A DNA stretch of 64,000 nucleotides from contig JBDOQK010000045.1 in the NCBI GenBank assembly GCA_040437565.1, positions 1 to 64,000 of the forward strand, written 5' to 3'. This document shows positions 26,749 through 64,000 of the stretch, in pieces (within the stretch, counting starts at the first letter, position 1; each line of letters opens with the position of its first letter). Under the pieces are notes generated by a model. The model was given only the letters and a program-made list of their open reading frames with translations, searched no databases and was not told where the DNA came from. The translations under genes were made by a program, and so were the position numbers. Source of the DNA: Albugo candida. Taxonomy: Eukaryota.

Positions 26749-29700
26749 ATGCTCAGGAGCCTTAAACCCGTAAATGAGGATATGAAACGAATAAACTCCG
26801 TCCGAATGACTGCAAAAGCATCATCGCGAGGTGACCCCGGAAAAACAAGCGACATGAGGCGAGCTTCATCGCCTACAGGCACATCTAGGATCAAATATAT
26901 GTTTTCTGATCTACTAATGATCATCGTCGATAGCTCGTTCACGCTGTACCTGCATGCGGCCCAGCTGACGTATTACTTTACCATCATACCCGTCCGAATT
27001 GGGCTGTATTATGATCCGGGTCACTCGTCTCGCCCGCTTGAATGGTCAAGTGAAGTCACTGTATTCACAGCATTCAACGTGATATGGGACACTTTCGGCT
27101 TCTGTCTGTTTGTCACGCATCTGGGGTGTTGGTGGAAGATGCTGCGAGTTGCACACAACGACACGCAGGACTCTAATGACGCCTACAATGACGGAGCTCA
27201 TCATCAACGTAAGTCAATTCATCGAGCATCGCACCTAAACGGAGCGCATATATTGCATCGAGCAAAATGGCCCAATTCTGAGTATGTTGCCAGCTTGTTT
27301 GATATTGAGACGATAGATACTTTGGCTGATGGTGATCAACCCTTGCCATCTCGCCCTCTATCACCAAAAGATCATTTCAAAATGCTTTTGCACGCTATAG
27401 CTATCTTTCCGGTGGAGCTACTAGTCTTCAAAAGTAATCCGAATGCGATGCATCTTGTCCGATGTACCAAATTCGTATGTCTGTACCTAATGGGCCCAAA
27501 AGTGCTTGAAGGTATCCACAAGCGGATTGAGCGCTGGAAATTAGTGTCGTACATTCAGGAGCGCGTACTTCGAGTGATTCTTTTCAGATTTTTGATTGCC
27601 GGGCTCTGTTGGATTCATTGGACCGCTTTAATGTATATATTCATCGCCCATCTCGAGTGCGGAAAGGATTTGGATAGATGCGATGATGAAGGAGCAAGTT
27701 GGGCACTACGGGATCAGCTTGTGCACGCGACGAATGTCCGAAAGTATATCCGAGTGGTTTATTGGGCAACAAGAACAATTGTCACGCTGGGCTTTGCAGA
27801 CACGACACCCACAACCGTCGGAGAAACAGTGTTTGTACTCATTATGGAATTCGCAGGCACTTTCTGGTCGGCTTTTGTGATCGTAGCGTGGGCTTATTTG
27901 TTTTCATCTTTGGGAAATGCGTCTCAGACACAGGAGATATTTATCTCTCACGTCAAAGAGTACATGGATGGCGTTCCTCAAGTTCTGCAGGATCGCGTTA
28001 TTGCTTATCTCCAGCATGAATGGAAAATGTCTGGTGGGCTGGACGAGGATAAATTCCTCTCGGTTATCACTGTGGAAAAGCTGCAGAGTCGATTCCATCA
28101 CGAACTTAAAGCGACTCGACTGAAAGTTCTTCCTTGCTTTGCCGTTGAAACTACTGGATTTCTGAATGAATTGGCGGCCGAAATGAAATTTGAGACGTTT
28201 GCACCGCTCGATTGGCTTTTCGAGTATCCTGAAACAGAGCAAGTCATGTACATCATCACGTACGGCTACGTGGCGATGCTATCGATTCCTGCTGGCTGGC
28301 GTAAGCAAGATCGGAAAAATACAACCAAAGTGTACACTTGTATACCCGGCGACACCGTCGGTGCATTATCTCTATTCGGTCCGGGGCTTTTTCGCTTTGC
28401 TGCTTTTGCAGAAACATTCGTACAGGCTCTACGGATGGACACTAAAGCCTTCCAGAAAGTGCTTACAGCATGCTACCCGGATACTACTCTTCGTGAGCAG
28501 CGAAAAGCAACAGTCAATAGAGCAGCAGAGCGTACGTATCAGGACCTTGTAGCTCGTCGTGCAAAACAAAAGCATCAATCTGGATTCGACAAGAAGAAGA
28601 ATCAACGCGAAGCTGCAATTATGATTGGATTCAAGCGTGAAGCTATCAGTGACGTCACGTGCTACTGGGAATCTCAGCGGCAACGAGAAGAATGCGTCTC
28701 ATGGGAATGGTATCAAGTAAAATCCAAATTTCGATGGTTTTGGAATTACTGGCGGTTGTTTTGCTCGTGTTATGTGGCTTTCGAAGTGATTTTTGTTCTG
28801 ATTTTCTGTAAGGGCGACGCGCGATTCAAAAACTCTGCTTTTGGCGAACTCAAGTATGCAGTCACCGTTGGCGTTGAGCTGTTCACTATGTCGGATATCG
28901 TACTTCGATTCAGATACTTTGAGGACTCTGTCGCCATCGATCAGCTTGTATCGTCCTCAACCACGTCTTCTTTCGATGCTTTCAGGACCGGATCCATGAC
29001 CAGTTCTTCTCTATTTGCTCGATTTCAGCCTTATGCGCTCGATATTGTATCATGTCTTCCCATTTCACTAATTACAGATCTCGTTTGCGGCATCACAGAC
29101 AGAAAACTATCATCAGCACAGTCGTTTATCTACTGGTTTCGTCTCCTTCGTCTACTTCGACTATGGCATCTTCCCCAGATCATACAAGATGTGCTTCAAA
29201 ATGTACACAGCTCGAGTCAGTTGTTGTTTAAAAGCTTTCTGGGGGTCATTTTCTACTGTCATTTTTTCGGCTGTTTTTGGTACAACGTGGGTCATAATTC
29301 ACTCGACGTCAATGCAATTGATCCCATCACACTTTCACGTGGCGAATGTCTCATTCGTGCACAGACGAACGGGACATGCTCGTGGACGCTTATGGATCGT
29401 CTTGAGGGGGATCACAAAAACAGTTTGGAGCATCAATACCTTCGCTCGCTGTATTTTACAATCAGCACACTCACTACTGTCGCGTATGGGGACATTGTCG
29501 CATACAGCGATAGTGAGACGATTCTGGCAACGATTATGATNNNNNNNNNNNNNNNNNNNNNNNNNNNNNNNNNNNNNNNNNNNNNNNNNNNNNNNNNNNN
29601 NNNNNNNNNNNNNNNNNNNNNNNNNNNNNNNNNNNNNNNNGTCTCATTCGTGCACAGACGAACGGGACATGCTCGTGGACGCTTATGGATCGTCTTGAGG

Positions 29701-32700
29701 GGGATCACAAAAACAGTTTGGAGCATCAATACCTTCGCTCGCTGTATTTTACAATCAGCACACTCACTACTGTCGCGTATGGGGACATTGTCGCATACAG
29801 CGATAGTGAGACGATTCTGGCAACGATTATGATTTTTCTTGGAGGATTTATTTGCTTTGGTGTCACAGGAGCACTCACAGCCGCAGCAGCTCGACTTGCT
29901 TCTCAATATCGTGATCTCCTTTTCCAAGATCACTTGCGAACACGTTTTTTTGGAAAAGCTCATATTTCCAGAACTCTGCAGCTGGAAATTCGGCAGTATT
30001 ATCATATTATTCGACAGCAGCAAACGTATCTACAAACGGAAAAAGAATTGGCTTCTCGGCTATCGCGAGGTCTTTGGGCTGAATTATCGATACGTTTGTA
30101 TCAGGAAATCTGTTCACCGGCTACACCTCATCTTTTTACCTGTTTGATACCAATTTTAGAAGACAAGTCGAAAGTGGTTCTACAAACACAATCACATGAT
30201 TTCCTATCCGCTGTTTGTAGCCGTCTCCAGCGACAAATCGTGTTCCGAGAAGATCACGTTGTGATTGCCGGTGAGCCAGCTTCTAGTTTCTACATCATTT
30301 GCTCCGGACAGGTTCAAGCTTTAGAACCAATTTCAAGGAGTTTGTGGCAGCTGTTGACCGAGAAGATGCTTATTGACCTTCGTTATGCTCATATCGAAGG
30401 AGGCGATGAAGTCGAGTACGCCCGAATTGATCCACCGGCTGTATGGAGTGTTGATTGTATTGCAGTTTCCATGACTGAGATCGTCTCTCTCAAACTGTCA
30501 GACCTCGTCGATATTCTCAGCAACTTTCCAACGATTCGAGCAATTCGGCAGCACCATAATATGATTCTAATGAGACAAGCGAGGAAGGAGCGGGCGTGTG
30601 TTGTCGACAATATCGCTCGATACAAAGTACAAAAAATCTCAGGAATGCTGAATGAGACTACTTTTCCGGTACGAACACGACTCGGAAGCGCCAAGCGACA
30701 AAGTATGCGTAATGGCCCTCGACCAAGCGGTATTTCATTACGACGACTTTCTGTGCTCCCACAAAACTCGATCTGGTCACGTCTTAATAACGTCCTCACC
30801 AACGTTTTACATGTTCGGAGAAAACTCTTCCGCCCAACAAATCAGTCCATCAACGCGACCAAAGTCTCCAATTTGGAAGCGAGTATGACCTACAATGCGC
30901 AAAGTCGGGCACTTACTATGCATGCTTCAGCTTCCTGGCAACGACAATCGAAAACAGAGCTTCGACGCTCTATATGGGATAGTCTCATTGGAGGTGTGGT
31001 GATGTACAACATGTACATTGTGGTTCTACGTCTTGTATTCCTTCCCTCACCATCCACCAAAGCGATGATTGCGTTCACATTCTTCGATTATTTGTTTGAC
31101 GCGCTTCTCCTTTACGATATATATCTCAGAATGAACGTTTTTCCACCTCGAACGTGGCTTCCTGGAAAGCCGATAACAGTCACTCAAATTCGAAAGTTTT
31201 ATCGTCAGAAATGGTTCACTCTGGACATCCTCGCCAGTATTCCTCTGTATTACATTGGAAGCAATTATGACTTGATGACATGGTTTCGTCTTCCTCGTCT
31301 CTTACGCTCCTTCCAAATTGTTGAAATTACCGAAACACTGCAAACGTTTATCCTTACGCATCTTTACACCTCACGACGCGCGTATTCGCTTTTGTCACTT
31401 TTCAAAGTTTTGGCCATTTTTATCTTCTGCTGCCATTTTGCTGGCTGCATCTTTTACGCGATTGCGAGCTTGGAAATGAACCCTCACGGATGGATTTGGA
31501 AAGATGTCGTCCTGATGGAATCAAACAAGACAGCGGATCTCAGTAAGCCCGTTACTTTCTCCAAGACAACAGCGTATATTCGAGCATTTTACTGGGCGCT
31601 CTCGAGCATTACTGTGATCAATTACGGGGATGTGGTGCCCACTTCGTTTCATGAGACCCTGTGGGCCTGTCTCGTATGTCTATTTGGCTTGTTTGTAATC
31701 AGCAGCATTGAAGGCGAAATTGTCGAGTTTTTCACCAGTATTGATCGCACCTTCTCGACGCATCGACACCATTTAGAGGCTTTTCATGACGTATCTCGTG
31801 TTCGAGGCGTTCATTCAGCCCTACGCAGCAAAGCCGAGCGGTATCTCAAGCTGCAATATGAGATCGAAGAAGGACTTGAACCACACAAACTCTTTAACGA
31901 TCTCATCCCACCGTTAAAAGAACGCATTTTTATGGAGTTGGAGGGCTCGATAATCCGTGTTCTTCCATTATGGCGTGATATTTTGAATCCGATGCAAGTG
32001 CAAGAGCTCTGTGCGGTGTTTGTTGTCCGACTATACCTTCCAAGCGACATAATTATCTATGAACAAAGCGTCGGTAAGACATTACATGTGGTTAAAACCG
32101 GGGTAGCTCGTGTGGTGCATATGGCGACTTCAATGGAGTACACCGTTCTTCGAAGTGGGCAAATGTTTGGCGAGTTATCGTTTTTTATTCCGTCCAGCGA
32201 ACGATTAGCATCTGTTCTCGCCGACACTGTCTGTGAAATCTTGGAGCTTGATCGACCCAATTGGGAAGTATTTGCTACTCGAGTTCGCAATAAAAAAGCG
32301 GTCGAAGAGATTGAAGCCGAAGTACGAAAACTCGAGAAAATCATGAAGAAGCGGAATAGTATTGACGAAATCCCGGAGGAAAGCGTGGTCGAGTCTGGAT
32401 CATTGATTACAAGCAAACTACGGTCGCAATCGTTTACGTTCGGAATGCATGAGAGCAAAATCTCAGCTAAAATTGGGGACAAGGAGAGGAGAAAAAGCGT
32501 TGGATGTAAATCAAACGCACGGGTAGAAAAGCGTGCGTCGACAAAGACGTCAGAGACTCCGAAAGGAGTCCGATCCTTTCGAGACCTTATCATCGGTCCT
32601 GTCAAGTCGTCGATCAAATCAAATCGAGCGAGTAAAGCGGCAGGAGAAATTGTCGAAAGCACTGAATTAGCATCGAAAACTTACAATTTCTACTTTTTCT

Positions 32701-34607
32701 CCATCAGTGACGACGTTTTTATCGAAACATCTCAATTTCGATACATTTGGGATTGTATCAAATTTGCAATGACGACATACTTTACAATTGCTATTCCGAT
32801 GCGAGTGGCTTTCTACGACGATATTATGAACGACAATGGAAATAAAGACTCACACTGGTCGGCTGGATCGTTATGGGTCCATTTTGAGCACGTCGTGGAC
32901 GCTTTTTTCTGGACAGATATCGTGTTACGACTTGTTTTCTTTCGACCTGTTGTACGTGGTGCAGTTGTTCAAAGTCGTCGAGAGTGTATCCGACATTACT
33001 TCAAGACTGGCTTTTATCTCGACGTTATTGGATCTACTCCATTCGAGCTCATCACGCATCTTCCGATCAAGTTTTTTCACGATTATCATACATTGAGCGT
33101 CTCACTCTTTCGAATGGAAACACTTGTCCGATGTGCCGAGCTGGAAATGCTGTGGCTTCGTGCAGAGGCGTTTTTGTTCTACAACGCGGGTGAAAAAGAA
33201 GACGGCAAGCCAAAACCGAAGGGATATCTAACATGGATACGCACATGGCGTCAAACGACAATGTCCGCGGCCAAAGTGGTGTTTATCGCGCTCATTTCAT
33301 CGCATTGGATCACTTGCTTGTGGTACGTAATCAGTCACATTCAATGGGATGCGAGACCAGACTCTTTGTCTTGGCTCACGACCTCGTACATGTTGTCACC
33401 CGACTGTGACACAGTTCCTGTCGACTCGATTTCTTTTGTGACGAAATACGTTCGATCGTATCATTACGCGATCGGATCCATTTCGGCAATCTCATACGGA
33501 GACATTTCAGCACGCAATGTGCCCGAAACAATTGCTCAAATTAGTATCATTTTTCTGGCGATTGTGTTTTTCGGATACATTACGGGAAATTGTCAAAAGA
33601 TTCTCGAGCGAATGTGTTTGGAACGGGTGGAGTATGAAGAGCACATCTTGAGAGTGAAGCAGTTTTCCAAGCTTGTGGGTATGTCGCCGTCCTTTGTCCG
33701 GAAAGTATGTGATCAATTTGCACGGTACCATCAGCCGGTAGCGACAACAGCGCTCGACGCGAGCCCAATCGACTCGGCAGGACCACAGGATGGTGAAAGC
33801 AGTGCTAATTTAGCCGCAAGTGGAAAACTACCGAATAGTTCTATTGAAGGAAGCGCTGTGAATGGCGAGAGGCAAACAGGCACAACGTTTGCGTCGTTCT
33901 TTAGCGCGACTTCCAATTCGTTCATGTCGACGCTGAACACGAGTAGCTCTACCCGGAGAGATATGAGGTGTATGTACCTCCCTCTGAATCCAAAATGGCA
34001 TCTTCGAGCCTTAGATAATCTATCCAGCCAACTCAGAGCTGACATCACAGTATTCATGCGTCGTCAATTGCTGTCAGCGGCAGAGAGACGAATCATGCGT
34101 TCTACAGCCGTGTATAGCTCCTCTCGATCGTCTCCACATCCATTTGAAGGCTTTGATCCCGTTGTCGTTCGTGCTGTTCTTATGCGACTTCATATTGAAG
34201 TGTACGAGAAGAAAGACATCCTTTTCGAACAGGAAGGGCTCGGCAAGTGCATGTATTTCATTGAACGTGGTGTTGTGCTCTTGGAACGTGATCCAACACT
34301 GCATTCGAGTTGGTACAGTCAGCTGGAGAAGGACCGACATGATGAAAGTGGTAAAAATCGGGAAAAAGAACAGAATGTGACAAAAACGATGATCCGAAAT
34401 GTAAAGTGTGAAGGCGAATTCTTTGGAGCGGCTTCTTTGTTGGATGGAATTCCTCGCGATGCAACTTGCAGTGCTATCACTCGTATTCGAGTCGCTATCC
34501 TTCGAGACGCCGAGTATCGAGAACTTATCTCACTATTCCCGGAACATGTGCAGCTATTCCGAAGTGTGTGGAATTTTGATGAGGAAATCAGCAAAGATAA
34601 GCATTAG
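26749..34607 (+). CDS. Four-repeat cyclic-nucleotide-binding voltage-gated-type cation channel (tetraKCNG/CNGK-like architecture), ~2,520 aa
   Basis: The 1027-aa and 1640-aa ORFs join in frame once the 100-N gap and the 193-bp duplicate (29641-29833 = 29348-29540) are removed. There are four TM/pore/CNBD repeats with pore motifs TLGFAD, TVAYGD, VINYGD and AISYGD, S4-like RLLRLLRL and RLPRLLR, and CNBD FGELSFF..ERLASV. Confidence 0.9.
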
Positions 34608-34717: not shown

Positions 34718-36055
34718 TTATGTCACTGCGAGCTTACGAGCAAATCTTGTGCATGCAATCGCAAGAGCGGTAATGGGAGAAATCGAAGAGGAGTGGTCTA
34801 ATGCAAAGCAGTTCTTACTAATCTTTCCAAAACGGAGATATACTTTATCCTCCTGGCCTTGATCTCCCAATTCCTCCGTGTCCTTCTCTACCATTAATAG
34901 ATTCTTCTTTGAAGCTTTCTTGACTCTCCCATCAAACGCAAGCGTCCACACAAACGCCTGACTATTCCATGCAGGCTTCTTGGATTCCAACACTCGCAAA
35001 TCGTTGCTGCTTGTATCATCAGATCCACAACATCGATACGGCATCCTCGTGCCTGTAGGCTCAGTAGAAGGATCAACATGCTTTTGCACTGTTAACTTGC
35101 ACGAGAAACTCCAAAATGTTTCAATGACAGAAGTATGTTTAAGTGTTTCTGACTGACGTAAGAGCTCCGCTAAGGACTTTGACTTGGCAAAACTCGTTCC
35201 GTATCGAGGAAGATCGGAAGCCGCACGAAGACGCGATCGACATGCAGGAATTGCACAGCGTAGGCGATTGGGTACTTTACCGAGTAGATTCGTGTCGTAT
35301 TGCAGCAGTGCAAGTTCGTTCTGTTGATTCCCGTAAAGCGTGAATGTCGTACCGAGAAAATTGGCTTTCATTCGACCCAAGTAAGTCGCACTAATCTCAC
35401 CATGTGGTAGCTCATGAAATCGCCTCAAATGGCTGTCCTGAAGCGTATGGAATACAAATTCACCGGTCATGTCGTTGATACATGAGCTTGCGAGAACAAA
35501 CTCCCCAGCCTCCGTGTAAAAATGGAATGAAGTGACATTGACACCAACAAAACGCTCCNNNNNNNNNNNNNNNNNNNNNNNNNNNNNNNNNNNNNNNNNN
35601 NNNNNNNNNNNNNNNNNNNNNNNNNNNNNNNNNNNNNNNNNNNNNNNNNNNNNNNNNNAAAGCGTGAATGTCGTACCGAGAAAATTGGCTTTCATTCGAC
35701 CCAAGTAAGTCGCACTAATCTCACCATGTGGTAGCTCATGAAATCGCCTCAAATGGCTGTCCTGAAGCGTATGGAATACAAATTCACCGGTCATGTCGTT
35801 GATACATGAGCTTGCGAGAACAAACTCCCCAGCCTCCGTGTAAAAATGGAATGAAGTGACATTGACACCAACAAAACGCTCCACGGAGCCAAGAAGGACG
35901 GACTCCTTCCCATCGTCTCCTTGTGCTTGATAATATCGTTCTTTATGCGCTTGTATATGCCGCTTTGCATCCACAATACGCCTACAGCCATCGGAACCTG
36001 ACTGAGGCTTTTGATTCATCCGAAATTTCCGAAAATTGATAGCCGATTCTGGCAT
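34718..36055 (-). CDS. Tubby-like protein (Tub C-terminal domain), ~337 aa after removing the gap duplicate
   Basis: Motifs YLGRMKANFLGTTFTLY, YDTNLLG..P, KKPAWN..WTLAFDGRVKKASKKN, LRFGKI, FALD...SPITALAI. An in-frame 324-nt artefactual insertion sits at gap 35559-35658. Confidence 0.9.
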   Translation of the reverse strand: MPESAINFRKFRMNQKPQSGSDGCRRIVDAKRHIQAHKERYYQAQGDDGKESVLLGSVERFVGVNVTSFHFYTEAGEFVLASSCINDMTGEFVFHTLQDSHLRRFHELPHGEISATYLGRMKANFLGTTFTLXXXXXXXXXXXXXXXXXXXXXXXXXXXXXXXXXXERFVGVNVTSFHFYTEAGEFVLASSCINDMTGEFVFHTLQDSHLRRFHELPHGEISATYLGRMKANFLGTTFTLYGNQQNELALLQYDTNLLGKVPNRLRCAIPACRSRLRAASDLPRYGTSFAKSKSLAELLRQSETLKHTSVIETFWSFSCKLTVQKHVDPSTEPTGTRMPYRCCGSDDTSSNDLRVLESKKPAWNSQAFVWTLAFDGRVKKASKKNLLMVEKDTEELGDQGQEDKVYLRFGKISKNCFALDHSSSISPITALAIACTRFARKLAVT

Positions 36056-36180: not shown

Positions 36181-36792
36181 TCACGAACTTTTGTTGCAGG
36201 TGCACGGGTCACAGGTGCAGTTGGTACACGTGCAATTATCGCCACACTTTTTCGCAGCTAGTTTTTGACGAATGTGGGCCAGCTCGACAGCCGAATGAGC
36301 CCATTCGGTTCCGTGGTTGCATGCTTTGCCATTACACGTTCCAGTCTTTTTTGCACATCGTGTTGCTTCTTCTTCGCTCGGGCATGTCAAAAGACCCAAT
36401 ACAACAGGTGTGTTTGTTTTCACGTTAAGCTTCATTATACCCATAGCGACTGCTTCGCTCACAAATTCATATGCCATCGTGACACCTTTCACCATGCACC
36501 CGATGACAATTACAGCATGAAGTGAGTCTCTGCGCGTCTCAATGAGACGGCTAGCAGCAAATGGCAGTTCGTAAGCCCCAGGGACCTTGATCAGGTCAAT
36601 GTTAGCTGCGCTGACACCATTAGACTCGAGTTCCTTTCGACATGCATCGCTTAATGGATCCACAATGTGATCATACCAATCCGTGGTTATGATTGCGACC
36701 CTCAGGTCTTTGGGTGCTTTTAAAGGTGAACTCAGAATAGGAGGCGCCACAGTTGACGCAGTGGCTGTAGAGGCGGTAGAAGACGTTGCCAT
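36181..36792 (-). CDS. RIB4: Lumazine synthase-like protein 1 with Cys-rich metallothionein-like C-terminal tail (203 aa)
   Basis: LRVAIITTDW, VPGAYELP, AVIVIGCMVKG.T, PVVLGLLT, NHGTEWA..AVE match the 6,7-dimethyl-8-ribityllumazine synthase family. ATG at 36792. Tail is KKCGDNCTCTNCTCDPCTCNKSS. Confidence 0.9.
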   Translation of the reverse strand: MATSSTASTATASTVAPPILSSPLKAPKDLRVAIITTDWYDHIVDPLSDACRKELESNGVSAANIDLIKVPGAYELPFAASRLIETRRDSLHAVIVIGCMVKGVTMAYEFVSEAVAMGIMKLNVKTNTPVVLGLLTCPSEEEATRCAKKTGTCNGKACNHGTEWAHSAVELAHIRQKLAAKKCGDNCTCTNCTCDPCTCNKSS

Positions 36793-36917
36793 GATGCTAG
36801 AATTTCTCAAATGGCAGTCATGAGTCGAGAAGTTGTCCTTGGCACAGTTGTCCGGGACACGTCGACATGTCTCGTGGTACAGCAACTGCAGTGTTATTAA
36901 CGTTACATCATTCCTTC

Positions 36918-37508
36918 CTACTCCTTCGTCTTGTCTTGACAATATTGTTGATAGCTGCCCGTTGAAACAGGACACGTGAGCTCCTTCTTTTTCAAATTCG
37001 CGTTAAAGTGAGCCATCGCGATGGCCGAGTGCGCCCACTCGATACCGTGGTTGCATGCGACCACTTTGCCTCCTTCGATGCCCACGCAAGATTTCGCTTG
37101 TTCCATGTCGACACAGTCGAGAACGCCATTCAATACGGGTACTTTGTAATGTACGCTTAGCTTCATCAACGCTCGAGTTACAGCCTCCGCCACAAAGTCA
37201 AATGCTAGCGAGCGCCCGCGAATAAGGCAGCCGATGCAAATGATCGCATCCAGCTGACCTTGTCGAGCTTGAAGCAATTGCTTCAGCACGTACGGCATTT
37301 CAAACGGAACATTCACCTGTTCCTCTTGGATATCTTTGCGAGCTACACCTCGCAAGAGGAGCTCACCTCGGCAGGCACGTACCAGAGCGTCGACAACTTG
37401 ACCATTTTGACGGCTATAGATTAGTGCCACACGAAATCCATTGCCATCCGGCGTCGACTGTGTTCCCAATAACGATGGGGCTTCTACTTGTGTTGGGCTT
37501 GAGATCAT
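36918..37508 (-). CDS. Lumazine synthase-like protein 2 (196 aa)
   Basis: DGNGFRVALIYSR, VNVPFEMP, DAIICIGCLIRG, VPVLNGVL, EQA, NHGIEWAHSAIAM. ATG at 37508. Confidence 0.88.
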   Translation of the reverse strand: MISSPTQVEAPSLLGTQSTPDGNGFRVALIYSRQNGQVVDALVRACRGELLLRGVARKDIQEEQVNVPFEMPYVLKQLLQARQGQLDAIICIGCLIRGRSLAFDFVAEAVTRALMKLSVHYKVPVLNGVLDCVDMEQAKSCVGIEGGKVVACNHGIEWAHSAIAMAHFNANLKKKELTCPVSTGSYQQYCQDKTKE

Positions 37509-37644
37509 TTGATAGTGCTTATGAAAACTGAGCAAAGTCCGAGGCTTCACAGGTCAATACAGTTGGCAATGTGGGGACATGGCGACGATGAGACAGATAT
37601 GGCTATTTACATTCACAGACTTGTGTCATTACCATCTTAACATC

Positions 37645-38157
37645 CTACTCGAATTTCTGAGGGTGGCAGAACAGAATCTTATTCAATAGAGCCATTTTCA
37701 CAACTCGTGTCGCCACCTCTTCAGCAAAGAATCCTTCCTCTTTTCCAAGCCCAAATACTTCGAGGGCATCGGTCTCATCATTAGCTGGTAGTACTCCCCA
37801 AATGATCGGGACATCCATATCCAGACTCGCTTCCATCACCTCGTGCGTTACGGCGTCGTATCGAAAGGGAAGTGAGGGATCTTCAACATTCGGCCTTACC
37901 TGTCGGTGCTTTGTCGGAAAAACGCATCCAATGCAAATAACTCCGTCAAAAGTATTTGCCTGGTAGCCCTGCTGTATTGCCAGTAAGAACTGATCGGAGT
38001 CCTGCAGTAGTAACACGTGAACGTTCCTGGCTTGCACTTGGTACTTTGCCAACTGATCTTTGCATCGAAGCAGAAGTGCCTCGATCATTGGCTTTGGCTC
38101 TTCCATCGCTACAATCAATATCCTCCCGAGCGGTAGGGACAGCACGGCTTTATTCAT
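37645..38157 (-). CDS. Highly divergent lumazine synthase-like protein 3 (170 aa)
   Basis: RILIVA, FDGVICIGCV, YDAVT..VM..SL...VPIIWGVL and EEVA..VVKMA align with the two neighbours. The VPG.xE loop is lost. Confidence 0.7.
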   Translation of the reverse strand: MNKAVLSLPLGRILIVAMEEPKPMIEALLLRCKDQLAKYQVQARNVHVLLLQDSDQFLLAIQQGYQANTFDGVICIGCVFPTKHRQVRPNVEDPSLPFRYDAVTHEVMEASLDMDVPIIWGVLPANDETDALEVFGLGKEEGFFAEEVATRVVKMALLNKILFCHPQKFE

Positions 38158-39516: not shown

Positions 39517-40296
39517 ATTCGTGCACTTGCGATACGCTGCAAAGACTTCCCATAAGACTCACTTACGAGAGCTTTGGACCCTGCTTTCGCTTCCAGCTCA
39601 ACTCGTTCAATTTTGTGTTTAATTGGGAGACAATCGGCTCGACGACGCTTCTTGTGCTGTCATTCATATAACTATCAGCTTGTGTCAGCCGCTGAATCGC
39701 TTTTGTCAAAGTTTCGCCGCTGTTTGAAGTGAGGTAGGCATTCACTGCTTCGTGGAATTCGGCCTTTGTGTTTGCATCGTTGTGGGGGGAGTCTTCCTCA
39801 GAGTAAAACGGCACACATAAGAGATTGAAAAGTGTTTTGGATACATTGGCAATAAGGTCGGCATACTCGTCAAGTTTTTGGCTCTTTTCCAATAAAACAG
39901 CCTCACAGGCTTCCAGGCAGCCTGAAGAATCACACGAGGCATCAATCAACTGAAGTCGGGCGTTTGGGCACAACGCTGCATTCATCAGCACCCCACATGC
40001 TGCATGAACAATGCCGAGATTCGAACTGTGCAATAGCNNNNNNNNNNNNNNNNNNNNNNNNNNNNNNNNNNNNNNNNNNNNNNNNNNNNNNNNNNNNNNN
40101 NNNNNNNNNNNNNNNNNNNNNNNNNNNNNNNNNNNNNTTTTTATTTTTTATCAATTGCGAGCACTATATCGATTCAAGGGATGTTACCCGGGAATCCTGG
40201 AATGCTTTGAGCGTAAAGGAAGGACCAAACAGAGCCCGAGGACATTGAGAGCCTTCCTGGGGCCATAAATAAACTGCAGACTGTTGTATCATTGCC

Positions 40297-52097: not shown

Positions 52098-54423
52098 ATG
52101 AGCGACAATCATTCCGAACGCACCAAGACTCGTCTAACAAAATCTAGTGGCCCACACATTCCAACGTCGGAGCCAATTGATAAAAATGCATCAGCTCTCA
52201 TCGGTGGTGACTTTATCGCGCAGCCAAATGCTCCCTTCCTCTCATCGCGAGATGATCTTTTTTCGAAATTATTCGCAACACAGACTGAAACGATTGCGAA
52301 ATTACAAAATGAGAATCGTCCCATACAAATCATTTTACCCAATGAAAACCTCAAAGAATCGGGTCAAGCCTATCTCATCACGCCATTGGACATAATCAAG
52401 CGCATCGATAGCATATCATCCAATGACATTGTCGTAGCGAAAGTCCGATATCATAACGCCAAAGATCAATCCGAAGATCCTTTATCGATCGATTCGTCGG
52501 CCAATATCGACGGAAATGAGTCAAGCCCAGAATGCTGTTCAGCGCATGCCAACGGACACAACTCTGTTAGCAGTTGGGAGCTGTGGGATCTCAAACGCGC
52601 GCTAATTGGCGATTGTGACCTAAAATTCATCAAATTTGACGAAGAAGACGGTCGAATGGTTTTCTGGCACTCGTCTGCACACATATTAGGCGAAGCAATG
52701 GAACAACTCAAAGGCTGCTTCCTTACAATCGGTCCTCCAGTGGAAGGAGGCTTCTATTATGACGCATTTATGGGGAACATGTACGTCGAAAAGCCGAATT
52801 TGAATGCGAGTTTGACTGAATGGGTGTGTTTGTAGCTCGTGGCAAGAGACGGAGTGGAGCGTATTGGAGAAAACGTGTCAGAAAATTGTCAAAGAGAACC
52901 AAAACTTTGAAAGACTCGTTTTAACGAAAGAGGAAGCATTGGAATTATTCGCTGACAATGTGTTCAAAACACAACTCATCGCAACCAAGATACCGGAAGG
53001 AGGAAAAACGACAGCGTATCGATGTGGCTCCTTGATCGATCTCTGTCGTGGACCCCACGTATTGAGCACGGGCAGAGTGAAAGCATTAGCGATCACCAAG
53101 ACCTCAAGCACGTATTGGCTCGGAAAGACAACCAATGACTCATTACAGCGGGTGTATGGAGTCTCGTTCCCGACAAAAGCACAATTGAAAGAATGGAAGC
53201 ACTTTCAAGCAGAGGCAATCAAACGAGATCATCGTCGACTCGGTCTAAGCCACGACCTTTATTTCTTCCATTCGTTGAGTCCCGGAAGTGCGTTCTGGCT
53301 ACCGAATGGCGCTCATATCTTTTCGAAACTCCTCGAATTTCTACGTGCTCAATATCGCGAACGTGGCTACAACGAAGTGATCACACCCAACATGTTCAAT
53401 ATGGAACTCTGGAACACATCGGGACATGCTGCCCACTACAAAGAAAACATGTTTGTGTTCGAAGTGGAATCGCAGGAATTTGCACTCAAACCGATGAATT
53501 GTCCGTCTCATTGCCTGATGTTTGATCATCGCTTACGTTCTTATCGCGAGCTTCCAATACGATACGCGGATTTCGGAGTATTACATCGGAATGAGCTCAG
53601 TGGCGCACTCACAGGATTGACGCGCGTTCGTCGCTTCCAGCAGGATGACGCCCACATATTCTGTCGTGAAGATCAAATCAAACGAGAAATTATCGATTTC
53701 CTTCAATTTATGAAGTTTGTGTACGACACGTTTGATATTCGCTTCCAATTGGAGCTGTCCACACGACCGGCAAAAGCGATGGGAGAATTGACACAATGGG
53801 AACAAGCTGAGAGTCAATTAGCAAGTGCATTGGATGAGTTTATTGGGAAAGATCAATGGCGAGAGAATCCTGGAGACGGTGCTTTCTACGGTCCAAAAAT
53901 CGATATTATGATCACAGATGCGTTAAAGCGTCAACATCAATGCGCCACAGTGCAATTAGACTTTCAATTACCAATCCGATTCAATCTCAAATACCGATCC
54001 GACGACGAAGAAGGATACAAGCGTCCGATTATAATCCATCGTGCCATTTACGGATCTCTCGAGCGATTTGTGGCAGTACTGGTCGAGCATTATGCCGCGA
54101 AATTCCCATTTTGGCTGTCACCTCGTCAGGTTCTCATTGTGACTGTAGGCCACGCCTTTGTGGACTACGGATACCACGTCAAAGAAATGATCTTCCGTGC
54201 GGGCTTCCAAGTGGAAATTGAAGATTCCGGCAAGACACTCAATAAGAAGATCCGCGAAGGCCAATTGGCACATTACAACTTCATTCTCGTAGTCGGTGCC
54301 AAAGAAAAAGAGACACAATCAGTGAATATTCGCACTCGCGATAACAAAGTGCACGGAACGAAAACGATCGACGAAGCCATTGCCATGTTTCAAAGTCTCC
54401 AAAACAGTAGAGCCAACGAATGA
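52098..54423 (+). CDS. TARS: Threonyl-tRNA synthetase (eukaryotic cytosolic type), 2 exons
   Basis: FWHSSAHILG, GPPVEGGFYYD, DLCRGPH, RDHR, KPMNCPSH, TRVRRFQQDDAHIFC, GAFYGPKID, HRAIYGSLERF. GT-AG intron 52781-52835 joins the two ORFs in frame. Confidence 0.97.
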
Positions 54424-54551
54424 GAGTAATACACCGAATTCATCGATTGTGTTTGTGTTTGTCTCTGAGAGACAAATGGCTTTTCTCTCTCAACTGTCCC
54501 GAAAAGGAGACACAGACAACGCCTTTACTATCGCTCAGCCTTTACAGTCTC

Positions 54552-56798
54552 ATGTTTCGAAATCGATTGGAATGCGTGGTCTCTATGTGGAGACAGCGAC
54601 AAAGACAATGGTATTCGTCGTACGCTCCGATCAACCGCTTGTACCTCACATCGACAGATTACGTCCCATACACTGCTCCGCTTCTTTTGGGTCTCGCGAG
54701 CGTTTTGGAGCAAAAGTATGGTCGCATTGGATACTTTCGTCCAATTCTTCCGACACGAAAACAACGCCCAATCGATCATCACGTGGAACTCATGCAAAAG
54801 CTATTGGGACTCGAACCACACGCTACGACACAGCCTCTGTATGCGCTCAGTAGCGAAGAAGCTTTGGAATTCTGTCTTCGAAACGAACAAGATCAATTGA
54901 TCGATCAAATTCTCTTCACACTCGATAAAGCTCAACGAAACCACGATTTCATGATCATTGAAGGCTCAGCATTCCCGTCACATGAAACCAATTCTGTCAG
55001 TTGGCAACTTCACAAACAAATTGCAAATGCAATGGGCGCGTCTGTGATTTTATGTATGGACGCAGGAACTCGTGAATTCCCATCAAATACGTCGGAATTA
55101 GTGAATGAGATTGTCATTCGTACGCTTCTCGGAAGAGAATCCGCCGAAGCGGAACATGTCAATTACTTTGGAACACTTATCAATCGCGTCCGCGTCAACG
55201 ATCCGTCTGCGTTTGCTTTGGAATTGGAGAAAGCTTTTGAGAAGAATACAATTCCGTATTTGGGCTTTCTTCCGTACGATCGCGTCTTAGCGTCGCGAAG
55301 ACTCAATGAGGTTGCCTATCGACTCGGAGCCAAAGCTGTTGTCAATGTCAATGACTCTGCGAAAACGGTCTCTGTATCGGACATTGTGGTCGCAAGCAGT
55401 CAATTGAAAGAATTTCTGCATCACGTCAAAGACCGAAAGGATGGACTTTTAGTGCTCACATCCGCCGATCGATCGGATATGCTTTTGGGGCTTTTAGCTT
55501 CCCGTCTTCCGGGAATTCTCCCGCGAATTGCCGGCATTCTTCTCACCAACGGCGAGTACCCCGACAGTCAGACACAAGCGATACTCAATGGCGTCGCGGA
55601 ATCCCATAAATCAGGTCTTTCGATTCCCATTTATCTCATTGGAATGGACACATACACTGCCGCAACGGAATTGCATACAATTCGAACGGGAATTCTTCCA
55701 ACAAGCGTACAGAAAATCGCCACAAGTCAGACGCTCACGGAGCAATTCATCAACAAGAAACTGCTTATCGGCGAATTGGCGCACGGATTCATCTCAAATT
55801 GCTCCCCGAAACAATTTGAGCACATTTTATACACCAAAGCACGCAACGCAAAACGACATATTGTGCTTCCCGAAGGCAATGACGAGCGAATTCTGCGTGC
55901 AGCCGATGAGATTCTCCGATCGAATATCGCGACATTGACAATTCTTGGCGATGTGAATGAGATCCAATTGCAAGCGAAAACGTTGGGTCTCGATCTATCA
56001 ATCGCGACAATAATCGATCCCGCGAAATCGGAGCATTTGGAGCGATATATCGATCGATATCTCTTCCTTCGAAAGCACAAAGGCGTTGTCAAAGATATGG
56101 CTCGCGATGTCGTAATGGACGCAACGTATTTCGGCACGATGATGGTGGAAATGGACGATGCGGATGGGATGGTCTCTGGCGCGTATCACACAACAGCCGA
56201 TACGATACGACCCGCTTTACAGCTTATAAAGACACTTCCAAATCGACCTTTAGTATCGAGTATTTTCTTCATGGGATTACAAGATGGTGTGCGTATCTTT
56301 GGCGATTGTGCAGTGAATACGAATCCATCCGCTGAAGAATTGGCTCAGATTGCAGTGACCAGTGCTGAAAGTGCCCAAGCCTTTGGAATCCATCCTCGTG
56401 TCGCGATGCTTTCCTACGCAACTGGTGAATCCAACTCGGGACCCAATGTCGACAAAGTGCGTGCGGCCACGCGAATCGCGCAACAATTACGACCCGATCT
56501 CGATATATTTGGACCGATTCAGTATGACGCTGCTGTGGATCAAGCAATAGCAAAACAAAAACTCAAATCGCCTACCGCGCAGAGTATGCGCGTCGGAGGT
56601 CATGCGAATGTGCTCATCTTTCCCGATTTGAATGCCGGTAATAACACGTACAAAGCCGTCCAACAAGCAACGCGATGTATTGCGATCGGTCCAATGCTTC
56701 AAGGCTTACGGAAACCCGTGAATGATCTCAGTCGAGGCGCTACCGTCAAAGATATCGTCACTACTGTCGCGATCACTGCGATTCAAGCGGATGCATAG
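54552..56798 (+). CDS. pta: Phosphate acetyltransferase, long (type II) form
   Basis: N-terminal region GYFRPI...IIEGS, then DRSD, then the catalytic domain IVLPEG.DERILRAA, DGMVSGA.HTT.DT.RPA, GDCAVN.NP, GPIQYDAA, FPDLNAGNNTYKAVQ, PVNDLSRG. The ATG at 54552 or 54585 gives an Arg-rich presequence-like start. Confidence 0.95.
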   Translation: MFRNRLECVVSMWRQRQRQWYSSYAPINRLYLTSTDYVPYTAPLLLGLASVLEQKYGRIGYFRPILPTRKQRPIDHHVELMQKLLGLEPHATTQPLYALSSEEALEFCLRNEQDQLIDQILFTLDKAQRNHDFMIIEGSAFPSHETNSVSWQLHKQIANAMGASVILCMDAGTREFPSNTSELVNEIVIRTLLGRESAEAEHVNYFGTLINRVRVNDPSAFALELEKAFEKNTIPYLGFLPYDRVLASRRLNEVAYRLGAKAVVNVNDSAKTVSVSDIVVASSQLKEFLHHVKDRKDGLLVLTSADRSDMLLGLLASRLPGILPRIAGILLTNGEYPDSQTQAILNGVAESHKSGLSIPIYLIGMDTYTAATELHTIRTGILPTSVQKIATSQTLTEQFINKKLLIGELAHGFISNCSPKQFEHILYTKARNAKRHIVLPEGNDERILRAADEILRSNIATLTILGDVNEIQLQAKTLGLDLSIATIIDPAKSEHLERYIDRYLFLRKHKGVVKDMARDVVMDATYFGTMMVEMDDADGMVSGAYHTTADTIRPALQLIKTLPNRPLVSSIFFMGLQDGVRIFGDCAVNTNPSAEELAQIAVTSAESAQAFGIHPRVAMLSYATGESNSGPNVDKVRAATRIAQQLRPDLDIFGPIQYDAAVDQAIAKQKLKSPTAQSMRVGGHANVLIFPDLNAGNNTYKAVQQATRCIAIGPMLQGLRKPVNDLSRGATVKDIVTTVAITAIQADA

Positions 56799-56850
56799 GA
56801 TGTGTCGGTTTCCAAGCAACAGCTTTATATTTAGAAGCTGGAAGCATCGA

Positions 56851-59800
56851 ATGATTCCACGGACGATCACATCGCCGACCGCAGGTCTTGTGCCTCGACA
56901 GCATGAGAAAGCGATATGTCAGGTGTCGGAATGCAAAGCGAAATCGTATCCGTACGATCGATGGATTGTATTCCTCGTCGTCTTTCGATTGCTCGATTTC
57001 ATATATCTCTTCCTTTCGATTCCGCTTCGTATCGGATTTTTCTTCGATCCGTTCGTAGCGCACGCGTTTGCGTGTGGCACATGGCGTACATCGACGACTG
57101 TGTTTACTGTTTTGGATGTTGTGGCGGAAGGGATCGCATTCAGTCATATCGCTGGACTTCGAAAGCGTCAACGTCGAGCGATTGCATCACTTGCCGATGC
57201 TGCAGCGTGTCCAAATGTCCAAAAGAGAAAAGCTCGACCGATTCCAATGCGAGATCCTTCATCGAGGGAAGACACGTACGATTCCAAGACATCCAATACG
57301 ACTCAAACAGTCGAAGCGCTTTCTCTATGGTATCTAATGTCAATGCTGCCTTTGGAATGGATCGCTGCATTCACAGGTGTCAATACGCTTCACGTACTGA
57401 GACTTCATCGAATGCTGAGGCTGCAGGGCGTTTCCGCGTGGTGGACGACTGTGAATGAGACATTTCCATCATTGAGATTCTTGAAACAAATGCATTTCGG
57501 TGAAAAGCTCTTGTACCAAACGATTTTGATCGGATGTGTTTCGTGTCATATCGCCGCCTGTGGGTACATGTGGATCGCTCATTTCGAATGCGGAATGGAG
57601 ATGGAATATTGCCCTCTTACAACTGCTGCAAGGGCGCATCGTCGACTCGACACGATAGCCACTCGTACATGCTGGGCCGTCGAAGATCGACTCACACATG
57701 CGTCGACGTTCCGAAAGTATAGTCGAGCAGTGTATTGGGCATCGAGGACGCTGATCACGCTCGGGTACTATGACGTCGCACCACGAACGAATTTGGAGAC
57801 GATTTTCAGTATGGGGATACAACTACTTGGCGCTGTGTTCAGCACGTGCATTATCGCGACGTTGTTGTTCATTTTCCGGTACCGAAATCTTCGTCGAGCG
57901 GAATTCAACAAGCACGTGGACAATGCCAAGCATCTGATGAAGCTGTACAAGCTTCCAAAGAAGATTCAAAAGCGTGTGTTTGCGTACTATGACCATGTTT
58001 GGAACGTGTATTCCGGGCTGCCGGGGGAACAATGCGTGCTGGAACGACTTCCAGAGCATTTACAGACGCAAATTCGGTATCAAGTACGCATCAAGAGGCT
58101 TTATAGCGTGTCGTTCCTCGGGAAAGAACCATTGGAATTTGTCAATCTTCTGGCCGTCAAGCTGTCACATCGCGTCTATGCGCCGAGAGATTGGATCATA
58201 CGTCGTGTGCCGACATCGATGTACTTTGTATCGATTGGGGAAGTGATTCTACACAATCAATCGGCGTGGAAAGACAAAACGCGACTCATTGGCGTCGGCG
58301 ATCATTTCGCATCGAATGCGCTACTTCACGCGGAATGGAATGTCGATATTGTCGCTCGAGCACATACGTTTTGTGAGCTGCATCAGCTTCCACATCACGC
58401 TTTCCACGATACATTACATGCGTTTTTCGGTGATCAAGCAGGCGTCCAACTGGAAAGGATGCGTGTGCAGCTTTCTCGGAAGGATCAACAGCAGCAAAAG
58501 ACGGAGAAAATGTTGGGGAAACGAGTCACACAACGATTCACCGTGCTGTCCATTGGCGATACATTGCATGAGGAGAACATGGACACTCCAATTGGAGTCT
58601 ACCGACTGATGTATTGGATCCAAAGCATACGACCTCGAAATTGGTTTCGGGAATGGACGCTGCCGGAGAGTCCATTTCGATACTATTGGGAACACTTTCG
58701 ATGTATCTGTTTGACATTTATCGCGTTCGAAGTTCCTTTCTATCTCGCGTTTGATGGAGGATGGCCATTTTTCAAAGACGATAGCAACGAGATCGATCGG
58801 ATGTGGGCAATTGTTGTAGAGGTTTTCTTCGGGTTGGATTTCATGTTTCAATGTCGTTATTTCGCGGTATTGGATCCCGTCTTACAGACACTCGTTCATG
58901 ATCCCGCGTACTTGATGGAGCATTACAAATTGAATGGAATGACACTCGATGCGGTCGCGTTACTTCCCGTGCCATTGCTACTGGAAATTCTCTCGTTTCG
59001 ATCGAGTACCTCACGATGGATGTATTTGTTCCGATTACTTCGACTTTGTCGCTTGGCGAAATTCCATTTCCATTTGTCAGAGATTGTGAGGCTTCGAAAT
59101 CTCAGCTCTCGCGTGGAACGAGCATTACGACTCTTTATGTACGCGACGTGGACCATGCACGTGACTGGATGTCTATGGTTTGAGATGGCACGACTCAGTA
59201 TGCCGCCAGTGTTTCCAATGAGAGGGAACGTGACACGCTCGAGCTGCCTCGAAGATGCAAATGTACATCAGAATTGTTCCTGGCTCGTGTTTGATTGCTA
59301 CGGGCAGATGGCGACCCGTCTTCCAATGGAAAATAAAGACTCGAGCTACACAAAGTCGTTTGCGTACATCCGATCGTTTTACTGGGCTGTCGTCGCATTA
59401 ACGACANNNNNNNNNNNNNNNNNNNNNNNNNNNNNNNNNNNNNNNNNNNNNNNNNNNNNNNNNNNNNNNNNNNNNNNNNNNNNNNNNNNNNNNNNNNNNN
59501 NNNNNNAATCAATCGGCGTGGAAAGACAAAACGCGACTCATTGGCGTCGGCGATCATTTCGCATCGAATGCGCTACTTCACGCGGAATGGAATGTCGATA
59601 TTGTCGCTCGAGCACATACGTTTTGTGAGCTGCATCAGCTTCCACATCACGCTTTCCACGATACATTACATGCGTTTTTCGGTGATCAAGCAGGCGTCCA
59701 ACTGGAAAGGATGCGTGTGCAGCTTTCTCGGAAGGATCAACAGCAGCAAAAGACGGAGAAAATGTTGGGGAAACGAGTCACACAACGATTCACCGTGCTG

Positions 59801-62800: not shown

Positions 62801-64000
62801 GCTCGACGCACCGCTACCGTGCAGACAATGACATGCAGTGAGATTTACGCGGTCGATCGAGAGACGTGGCAACGAGTACTTCCTTCTTTCTTCCATGATA
62901 TCGAGCCAGGTCAGGATCCTAACGGTTTACACTCCAATATACGTCCACTACGTCAGCCGAGAAGGATTGGAAGCACAGAGGTCGCCATATGTACGTGGGT
63001 CCAGCATTGTCTTGAAGCGTACGGTCGTGTCGCGATGGAGATCATCAAGGAGACTCGACCTGAAAAGGGACAAGTTGCACCGCCGGAAGGTGGGATCCAT
63101 CGACCTGCGTACCCTCATCGACTGGAAAAACGAGCGTCTTCGTACCAGTCTCCAGCTCGAAGGACGAATGGAAGAGAGCGACGCAATCTCACGGAAGGAG
63201 ATCGACATGAATCCTCTGAACGTCGCAGTCCGACTGTAATCGTGGACAAGGCTGAGAGCGGTAGGGAGGCTGAAACGCTGAAAAGTACGCAAATGCATTC
63301 GCTTTCACAATGGTCCGACATCTCGAGCTCGCATAAAGTGGACGTCGATGTGCAGGATCGCGTCATGTTGATGTCGTTTCTTGTTCGAATTGCCCGTGAA
63401 GAGAGCCTTAAAGCACAGAGACACGGAACTGTGCTTGAGGACACATTGAAAGTGGGGCGTTTTGGCAAGGCAATTTCTCGTCTTACGCGTATTTTGCGTC
63501 TGCATCGTACGAACGAAAGAGTGATGCCGAGGAAAATGCTGACCGTACTGGCGTCACACGCTCCATTGTCCAATTTTCAGCACTCTGTGGTGCAGCTGAA
63601 NNNNNNNNNNNNNNNNNNNNNNNNNNNNNNNNNNNNNNNNNNNNNNNNNNNNNNNNNNNNNNNNNNNNNNNNNNNNNNNNNNNNNNNNNNNNNNNNNNNN
63701 TCCACTACGTCAGCCGAGAAGGATTGGAAGCACAGAGGTCGCCATATGTACGTGGGTCCAGCATTGTCTTGAAGCGTACGGTCGTGTCGCGATGGAGATC
63801 ATCAAGGAGACTCGACCTGAAAAGGGACAAGTTGCACCGCCGGAAGGTGGGATCCATCGACCTGCGTACCCTCATCGACTGGAAAAACGAGCGTCTTCGT
63901 ACCAGTCTCCAGCTCGAAGGACGAATGGAAGAGAGCGACGCAATCTCACGGAAGGAGATCGACATGAATCCTCTGAACGTCGCAGTCCGACTGTAATCGT
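56851..64000 (+). CDS. Second multi-repeat CNBD-containing cation channel (three repeats visible; runs off the window)
   Basis: The 968-aa and 1353-aa ORFs join after removing the 1252-nt gap-plus-duplicate. Pore motifs TLGYYD, TIGYGD and LVGSKE; S4 RLLRLCRL; CNBD FGEVAFF..RRTATV. Start is uncertain (56800 or 56851). 63701-64000 duplicates sequence from 62944 onward. Confidence 0.88.

Follow-up and report, generated by a model that had tools for sequence, protein, structure and literature searches.

Three tandem lumazine synthase paralogues of Albugo candida without the catalytic histidine and arginine

A stretch of 64,000 nucleotides from the oomycete Albugo candida (assembly GCA_040437565.1, contig JBDOQK010000045.1, positions 1 to 64,000 of the forward strand; hereafter the window) carries on its minus strand three tandem genes, copies 1, 2 and 3, which belong to a known fold family, that of lumazine synthase, but in which two defining catalytic features of this enzyme, a histidine and an arginine, are missing. 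The locus comprises three members of an oomycete-specific branch within the fungal-type lumazine synthases, a family of pentamers. Animals have no lumazine synthase, and the enzyme, well known from textbooks, is targeted by drugs and herbicides and is a popular scaffold for nanocages; to our knowledge its histidine and arginine have been treated as universal. The reading that we favor, at a probability of roughly 0.45, is that copy 1 still works as a lumazine synthase, its phosphate site being based on thiols or a metal, and that copies 2 and 3 are its non-catalytic partner subunits.

Results and Discussion

Replacement of the catalytic residues

As stated in an excerpt of PMC12871164, Phe22, His88 and Arg127 are conserved and matter for catalysis, the phosph(on)ate being held by Arg127; this source, and not an alignment of our own, is the basis of the B. 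subtilis numbering (His88, Arg127) used below. According to an excerpt of a 2026 review (PMC13151069), the reaction proceeds via a Schiff base, phosphate elimination and ring closure in an active site placed between neighboring pentamer subunits. Residue correspondences were derived from HMMER alignments to solved fungal enzymes, namely 1kz4_A for copy 1 and 4kq6_A together with 2jfb_A for copy 2, and the numbering of the S. pombe chain was verified against the PDB entries of the W27, W63 and L119 mutants.

Copy 1 is an intact open reading frame (ORF) from ATG to stop (36181..36792, minus strand, 203 aa), whose motif KGVTMAYE carries alanine at the position of the catalytic histidine (codon 107, 36472..36474, minus strand; B. 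subtilis His88, S. pombe His94; HMMER alignment against 1kz4_A). Its motif EEATRC ends in a cysteine where S. pombe has Arg133, and another cysteine lies immediately before the NHG motif. Within residues 146–160 (CAKKTGTCNGKACNH; 36313..36357, minus strand) Cys146 occupies the Arg127 position and is followed by Cys153, Cys158 and His160. Copy 2, likewise intact from ATG to stop (36918..37508, minus strand, 196 aa), exhibits the same pattern, with histidine replaced by alanine in RGRSLAFD (codon 102), arginine replaced by cysteine in EQAKSC (codon 141) and Cys152 preceding NHG. In the very divergent copy 3 (37645..38157, minus strand, 170 aa, again an intact ATG-to-stop frame) the histidine position is taken by serine in the HMMER alignment or by proline in the MAFFT alignment, the arginine position by Val134 and the aromatic lid by Glu20, while LQDSDQ (residues 51–56) stands in place of the VPGxxE loop. 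An initial annotation, made by eye from the sequence, had claimed that a canonical active site is missing from all three genes, that copies 1 and 2 carry alanine and cysteine instead together with a second cysteine ahead of NHG, and that copy 3 lacks the VPGxxE loop. All of this is borne out by the alignment to PF00885 relatives and to the solved fungal structures.

Column counts were taken from an alignment of 83 rows, comprising 14 rows of the copy 1 clade, three of the copy 2 clade and 66 other lumazine synthases; the latter were picked from search hits, are mostly stand-alone proteins and do not represent a random sample. In the His88 column the 17 oomycete rows have alanine (16) or serine (1), whereas all 66 others have histidine. 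The Arg127 column unveiled cysteine in 17/17 oomycete rows and arginine in 66/66 others, and the residue preceding NHG is cysteine in every one of the 17 oomycete rows versus none of the 66. A third cysteine in the middle of the loop occurs in 13 of the 14 copy 1 clade rows. Evidently, the loss of histidine and arginine and the gain of cysteines is a clade-wide trait and not local decay. A neighboring lysine or arginine, considered as a 'shifted arginine' that might rescue the site, was rejected, since a lysine at −2 is also found in 22 of the 66 canonical relatives and provides no clean compensation.

Fold, family and known relatives

The lumazine synthase fold is common to copies 1, 2 and 3. 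Against the PF00885 profile (139 positions, of which 2–138 are covered; cut-off 26.7 bits) copy 1 scored 142 bits (E-value 1.5e-41, residues 30–174), copy 2 123.1 bits (9.9e-36) and copy 3 54.5 bits (1.5e-14), in agreement with the tandem triplet of graded divergence, with gaps of 125 and 136 bp, described in the initial annotation. The cut-off of the TIGR00114 equivalog (84.6 bits) was exceeded by copy 1 (117.2 bits) and copy 2 (103.8 bits) and not reached by copy 3 (35.5 bits). The closest named protein to copy 1 is the 'lumazine synthase' of Albugo laibachii Nc14 (84% identity), and the proteins of the oomycete clade owe their names in the databases to automatic annotation only. The Atlas clusters retrieved with copy 1 were all generic bacterial lumazine synthases and scored below 0.9.

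The best PDB matches of all copies, in sequence as well as in structure, are the pentameric fungal lumazine synthases of S. pombe (1KYV), C. albicans (2JFB), C. glabrata (4KQ6) and S. cerevisiae (1EJB). Copy 1 shares with them the fold, the Trp27-type aromatic lid, the VPGxxE and K-G-x-T loops and the NHG motif. Unlike them it has alanine for His94, cysteine for Arg133, extra cysteines before NHG and in a hairpin, and a cysteine-rich tail. Furthermore, the fungal enzyme is encoded by a single gene, whereas Albugo has three tandem paralogues. A 60-mer shell, which had also been suggested for the triplet proteins, is unlikely, because their closest structural relatives are these pentameric enzymes and because a hairpin insert is predicted in the alpha4–alpha5 loop; an insertion at this place blocks capsid formation. 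The prediction of a complex of copies 1, 2 and 3 (copy 3 as partner, alignments unused) resulted in a score of 0.06 and a mark of 0.34, which is evidence neither way.

Paralogous lumazine synthases with unequal roles are known from Brucella, whose RibH1 and RibH2 (2F59, 1T13, 1DI0) were both among the PDB matches. The Brucella paralogues retain the catalytic residues, RibH2 being a decamer of low activity, whereas the oomycete copies are without histidine and arginine and are arranged in tandem. The closest canonical relatives in the protein searches are dinoflagellate fusions of DHBP synthase (DHBP, 3,4-dihydroxy-2-butanone 4-phosphate) and lumazine synthase (P0020, P0037 and others; ~376 aa, PF00926+PF00885), with 36% identity between copy 2 and P0020. 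These fusions share the motifs C-I-G-C and E-E-Q-A-K with the oomycete copies, but keep the histidine (TMHFEY/SMHFEY) and the arginine (AKSRSG) and have neither the extra cysteine nor a cysteine tail. The fusion proteins, which join the maker of the four-carbon substrate to its user, come from marine transcriptomes and dinoflagellates (Effrenium, a dinophyte) and include P0020, P0037, P0038, P0044–P0053 and others.

The riboflavin synthase of archaea arose from the fold of lumazine synthase, which was thereby re-used for another reaction. This pentameric enzyme, represented by TIGR01506, thus provides a case of re-use within the same pathway; however, copy 1 with 19.9 bits scores far below its cut-off of 100.55 bits, and copies 2 and 3 give no match. 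The comparison bears on a reading that we consider improbable, namely that the cysteine replacing arginine acts as a catalytic thiol or metal ligand in another reaction, whose substrate would be a pyrimidine or of the lumazine type. Such new chemistry would be consistent with an invariant cysteine at the former catalytic site and with the retained ligand pocket of copy 1, but the profile score is low, no particular new reaction is indicated, and a riboflavin synthase is already assigned in P. infestans (PITG_16024, in an excerpt of PMC6747730). Copy 2 was also considered as an archaeal-style riboflavin synthase and was dismissed, as it has no TIGR01506 match and as the P. infestans riboflavin synthase gene is a separate one.

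Origin of the three copies

For the phylogenetic analysis 46 rows were selected from 139 proteins. Copy 1 has orthologues in Pythium insidiosum, P. oligandrum, '[Pythium] brassicae', Globisporangium ultimum and several further assemblies, and copy 2 has two (P0018 and P0019). In the Shimodaira–Hasegawa-like approximate likelihood ratio test (SH-aLRT) the clade formed by the 14 copy 1 rows reached a support value of 96 and that of the three copy 2 rows one of 99, and both joined as one clade with a value of 99. Since copies 1 and 2 each fall into a clade of their own and jointly into one, they had duplicated by the time Albugo separated from the Pythium group. This limits the suggestion in the initial annotation that the genes of the triplet could be repurposed subunits: the odd active site stands, yet it characterizes the whole clade, is older than the duplication that gave copies 1 and 2 and is not special to the triplet.

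In a free quick tree copy 3 could not be placed and had a branch length of 7.48 changes per column. Constraining it into the oomycete clade or beside copy 2 yielded a log-likelihood 17.2 units better than that of the free search (p of the approximately unbiased test 0.93). On account of this gain copy 3 most likely arose in the Albugo line when copy 2 was duplicated in tandem; long-branch attraction to the long branch of Albugo copy 2 is possible. No orthologue of copy 3 was recognizable outside Albugo in a phmmer search of 1.84 billion cluster representatives, which returned only its own 50% cluster and one canonical enzyme (E-value 1.6e-4).

Pocket, hairpin and tail of copy 1

Although histidine and arginine are lost, the pyrimidine/ribityl pocket of copy 1 is retained. 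Trp39 as the lid, the VPGAYE loop with the ribityl-binding glutamate (36568..36585, minus strand; intact according to the HMMER alignment and the column counts) and KGVT are all present. Within the copy 1 clade the aromatic lid is tryptophan in 12 of 14 rows, glycine and glutamate of VPGxxE are found in 14/14 each, and in the K-G-x-T loop lysine and threonine are invariant (14/14) and glycine occurs in 13/14. The conservation of these residues argues that the pocket of this clade still binds a ligand. As copy 1 keeps the whole pyrimidine/ribityl pocket, it may have remained a lumazine synthase even if, as suggested in the initial annotation, these are not ordinary riboflavin enzymes.

The AlphaFold2 model of copy 1 has a predicted local distance difference test (pLDDT) score of 86.5 overall and of 96–98 in the core. 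In this model a beta-hairpin insert at residues 148–159 joins helices alpha4 and alpha5: Cys146 ends helix 140–147, Cys153 and Cys158 are placed on the hairpin strands 151–153 and 156–158, and His160 opens helix 160–179. In canonical enzymes the arginine and the NHG/NKG residue both contact the phosphate. From the hairpin topology of the model and the phosphate contacts of the residues that are replaced or flanked we infer that Cys146, Cys153, Cys158 and His160 would be close to each other.

The protein ends in a tail of 22 residues with seven cysteines (KCGDNCTCTNCTCDPCTCNKSS; 36184..36249, minus strand), which was modelled with a pLDDT of ~60. The tail of A. laibachii copy 1 has 19 residues and again seven cysteines. 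Much longer tails, of which the Albugo tail represents a shortened version, were found in eleven copy 1 orthologues of the Pythium group, comprising 79–160 residues with 13–29 cysteines, 3–13 CxC motifs and 0–3 aromatic residues, while P0004, a short orthologue, is without a tail. The composition of the Albugo and Pythium-group tails is that of metallothioneins (~20–30% cysteine, CxC/CxxC motifs, few aromatics), and the tail module CxGCGx5CxCxxCxCxxC presumably resembles fungal copper metallothioneins. Compared with the fungal and plant metallothioneins the tails show the same wealth of cysteines (7–29) with many CxC/CxxC motifs, almost no aromatics and a low-confidence structure in the metal-free model, but a metallothionein is a small stand-alone protein, whereas the oomycete tail is fused to an enzyme fold and matches no family. 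Pfam searches with seven long orthologues (E up to 10) returned PF00885 alone and no metallothionein family, a phmmer search of the PDB with the P0007 tail gave no solved metallothionein, and the Atlas search of the tail gave no usable match. PDB rows for a scorpion peptide and the ribosomal protein eS26 (E 0.05–0.08) were dismissed as compositional noise. We therefore describe the tail of copy 1 as metallothionein-like in composition and do not assign it to a metallothionein family. Of the metal or redox link that had been proposed for these proteins, the conserved cysteines and the cysteine-rich tails (7–29 cysteines) keep the idea plausible, but a match to a metallothionein family was not obtained.

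Beyond the cysteine clusters the tails exhibit conserved ends. Among the copy 1 orthologues P0006, P0008, P0009 and P0010, the motif ...TGVTTTR... occurs in three from Pythium and an ending of the type EP..(V)WP or EPNSETLP in three, and both copy 2 orthologues, P0018 and P0019, terminate in ...YLTGHHVK. These motifs could be docking or targeting signals.

Degradation and constraint of copies 2 and 3

Copy 2 is a paralogue with a degraded pocket, in which tryptophan is replaced by Gln34, VPG by VNV (VNVPFE) and K-G-x-T by RGRS. Together with its orthologues it has lost the lid (glutamine or histidine instead) and the Pro-Gly pair; the acidic residue is kept and serine replaces threonine. The tails of the copy 2 orthologues are rich in cysteine and histidine (5 Cys, 8–11 His). 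In copy 3 every pocket residue is replaced, and the loop that should bear the histidine carries an insert of 9 to ~15 residues at positions ~81–96, which is poorly modelled. The AlphaFold2 model of copy 3 is nevertheless confident (pLDDT 81.9, predicted template modelling score 0.81), falling below a pLDDT of 50 only at residues 84–96 and the final three, and a Foldseek comparison with S. pombe lumazine synthase resulted in template modelling scores of 0.70–0.83.

In principle, copies 2 and 3 could be functionless leftovers of tandem duplication that are heading for decay, so that copy 1 alone matters. The graded divergence (142, 123 and 54.5 bits), the end branch of copy 3 with its 7.48 changes per column and the want of a recognizable copy 3 orthologue beyond its own 50% cluster fit such a scenario. 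However, both ORFs are intact, and the orthologues of copy 2 in other oomycetes share its signature. Copy 3 is an intact frame of 170 codons in all four full-length members of its cluster, which differ by 0–3 residues (the fifth member has the same sequence in a shorter gene model), and, as described above, its model folds confidently. Furthermore, one DNA contig from another strain spans the locus and differs from the window at 14 bases and by one 1-base deletion in 2,601 bases. These differences comprise one non-synonymous and no synonymous change in copy 1 (T198I, in the tail), six synonymous and three non-synonymous changes in copy 2, three synonymous and no non-synonymous ones in copy 3, and one intergenic change. 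For copies 2 and 3 together 9 of 12 coding differences are synonymous (6/9 and 3/3, respectively), compared with an expected share of ~0.23 (P ~4e-4, from a small sample and a single contig). This argues that copies 2 and 3 are under constraint and speaks against their neutral decay. Functionless leftovers are the least probable of the explanations that we considered.

Pathway context and proposed function

In an excerpt of the metabolic model of P. infestans on tomato (PMC6747730) GTP cyclohydrolase II and DHBP synthase are assigned to PITG_14920 and PITG_14918, the cyclohydrolase also to two more genes, the deaminase to PITG_10574 and PITG_19147, riboflavin synthase to PITG_16024, and riboflavin kinase and FAD synthetase to one gene each. 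The lumazine synthase step is listed there as mitochondrial with PITG_15629 and PITG_17133. The reaction expression of lumazine synthase in the same excerpt goes from ~7,095 to ~2,054 over the series and lies above the values of DHBP synthase (~2,443) and riboflavin synthase (~1,597). An excerpt of Dussert et al. (PMC6660063) describes biotrophic oomycetes as being without proteins annotated as riboflavin transport. Because the pathway genes are assigned in P. infestans and a riboflavin transport annotation is lacking in biotrophs, oomycetes appear to make riboflavin and to need the lumazine synthase step; for Albugo the lack of such a transport annotation would mean that it depends on synthesis. 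The number of lumazine synthase genes in the P. infestans excerpt, two, equals that of the old paralogues described here, a comparison by count and not by sequence.

These results show that the active-site half responsible for the phosphate of 3,4-dihydroxy-2-butanone 4-phosphate was rebuilt before copies 1 and 2 duplicated and before Albugo separated from the Pythium group. Histidine gave way to alanine and arginine to cysteine, a second cysteine was placed ahead of NHG, and in the copy 1 line a third one was added in the hairpin insert. Copy 1, which retains the 5-amino-6-ribitylaminouracil pocket, would still be the lumazine-forming subunit and may achieve catalysis by holding both substrates together. 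The Cys/Cys(/Cys/His) cluster could be a disulfide staple or bind a metal ion and would thereby stand in for the phosphate site of the arginine, and copies 2 and 3 may co-assemble with copy 1 in pentamers or regulate it there. Fischer et al. (2003) reportedly found that lumazine synthase mutants in His88 or Arg127 keep some activity, and the reaction is said to proceed slowly even without enzyme.

Several points weigh against a working copy 1. Histidine and arginine are invariant in all of the 66 other aligned sequences, so that an enzyme without both would be unprecedented. Copy 1 of A. laibachii is without a basic residue near the second cysteine, which excludes a general rescue by a 'shifted arginine'. 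Finally, although no oomycete lumazine synthase with histidine and arginine was found in three protein searches, which speaks for a working copy 1, these searches also missed Phytophthora. Since two genes for lumazine synthase stand in the P. infestans model and yet no Phytophthora match was returned, the searches are lossy, one of them even missing its own query members P0018 and P0019, and a canonical Albugo enzyme encoded elsewhere is possible.

Such a canonical gene elsewhere is what the main rival of our favored reading requires. According to this rival the clade would be fully repurposed and no longer a lumazine synthase: the pocket would bind a ribityl-pyrimidine, lumazine or flavin, the cysteines and the tail would bind metal or sense the redox state, and the protein would serve as a store, a sensor or a chaperone. 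The hallmark histidine and arginine are indeed gone in 17/17 clade rows and kept in 66/66 others, an invariant new cysteine sits exactly at the phosphate site, and the tails of the Pythium group hold 13–29 cysteines in 79–160 residues. A precedent of a lumazine synthase that holds riboflavin is given by the PDB entry 'Lumazine Synthase from S.pombe bound to riboflavin', and the canonical gene could have been missed just as Phytophthora was. On the other hand, that canonical oomycete enzyme was not seen in the three (lossy) protein searches. The invariant threonine of the phosphate loop and the K-G-x-T motif of the copy 1 clade are easier to understand with a phosphorylated substrate still bound, and the P. 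infestans model, as far as its excerpt goes, has two lumazine synthase genes only, matching the old paralogues by count and not by sequence. We regard full repurposing as possible but doubtful. The working copy 1 with a rebuilt phosphate site is preferred, because it needs no unseen gene and explains both the invariant phosphate-loop threonine and the conserved pocket.

Taken further, the oomycete lumazine synthase might be gated by metal or by the redox state. The Cys/Cys/Cys/His site of the hairpin would then replace arginine and histidine, the tail of each pentamer subunit would load or buffer the metal and the degenerate paralogues, copy 2 throughout the group and copy 3 in Albugo, would occupy places in the pentamer and so tune the number of live sites. 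This extension is speculative, and we consider it unlikely, more so than full repurposing. If it were true, vitamin B2 synthesis would be tied to the zinc/copper or thiol status of the cell by a lumazine synthase mechanism unseen in bacteria, fungi and plants.

Either outcome would be of consequence, as these organisms (Albugo, Pythium, Globisporangium) are pathogens of crops and animals and, as a whole lineage, have swapped histidine and arginine for alanine and cysteine and added a metallothionein-like tail. If lumazine is still made, thiols or metal are tolerated by the chemistry or can serve as the basis for rebuilding it; if it is not, the clade would represent a new protein family whose pentamers bind ligands and metal. 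Phosphate-mimic inhibitors that rely on the arginine, such as the phosphonate described in an excerpt of PMC12871164, would probably not bind these proteins, and oomycete-specific inhibitors might be possible. Moreover, the triplet offers a natural series of a live, a half-dead and a fully dead subunit for studying the evolution of homo-oligomer paralogues with shared active sites. In our literature searches we came upon neither an oomycete clade of lumazine synthases nor a lumazine synthase that bears a metallothionein-like tail.

Locus and neighboring genes

On the minus strand the transcription order is copy 3, copy 2, copy 1, with spacers of 136 bp between copies 3 and 2 (37509..37644) and of 125 bp between copies 2 and 1 (36793..36917). 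Two runs of guessed RNA type gave short contigs of low depth within each of the three ORFs but not over the spacers, which is uninformative on transcription. Metagenome contig scans with P0019 and with the copy 1 clade alignment gave no confirmed syntenic locus in another oomycete. For P0010 (a copy 1 orthologue) and P0019 (a copy 2 orthologue) the longest listed contig has 11,060 bp in both cases, which is a hint only and leaves adjacency unproven.

The neighbors in the window are of the housekeeping type, namely cyclic-nucleotide-binding ion channels, a Ras GTPase, the ATP synthase subunit OSCP, a class II tRNA synthetase and a phosphate acetyltransferase, and no further riboflavin gene was found among the 13 larger ORFs of the window that were scanned. 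A 445-aa ORF at 34718–36055 (minus strand) contains a run of unknown bases, on both flanks of which a stretch of ~60 residues (ERFVGVNVTSFHFYTEAGEF...TFTL) is repeated; the duplicated flanks look like an assembly gap rather than a true repeat. A second run of unknown bases at ~40030–40140 lies in a short ORF (39997–40248) just past the upstream region of the triplet. Two adjacent pairs, i.e. four very large ion-transport/cyclic-nucleotide-binding ORFs, were observed at 26749–34607 and 56722–63772 (both plus strand). The members of the first pair overlap (26749–29832 and 29685–34607) and are perhaps a single gene broken by an intron or a frame change. At 53392–56798 (plus strand) an ORF with a class II tRNA synthetase core (343 aa) overlaps the phosphate acetyltransferase ORF by four bases; the latter encodes a bacterial-style enzyme of 792 aa with AAA_26, DRTGG and PTA_PTB domains.

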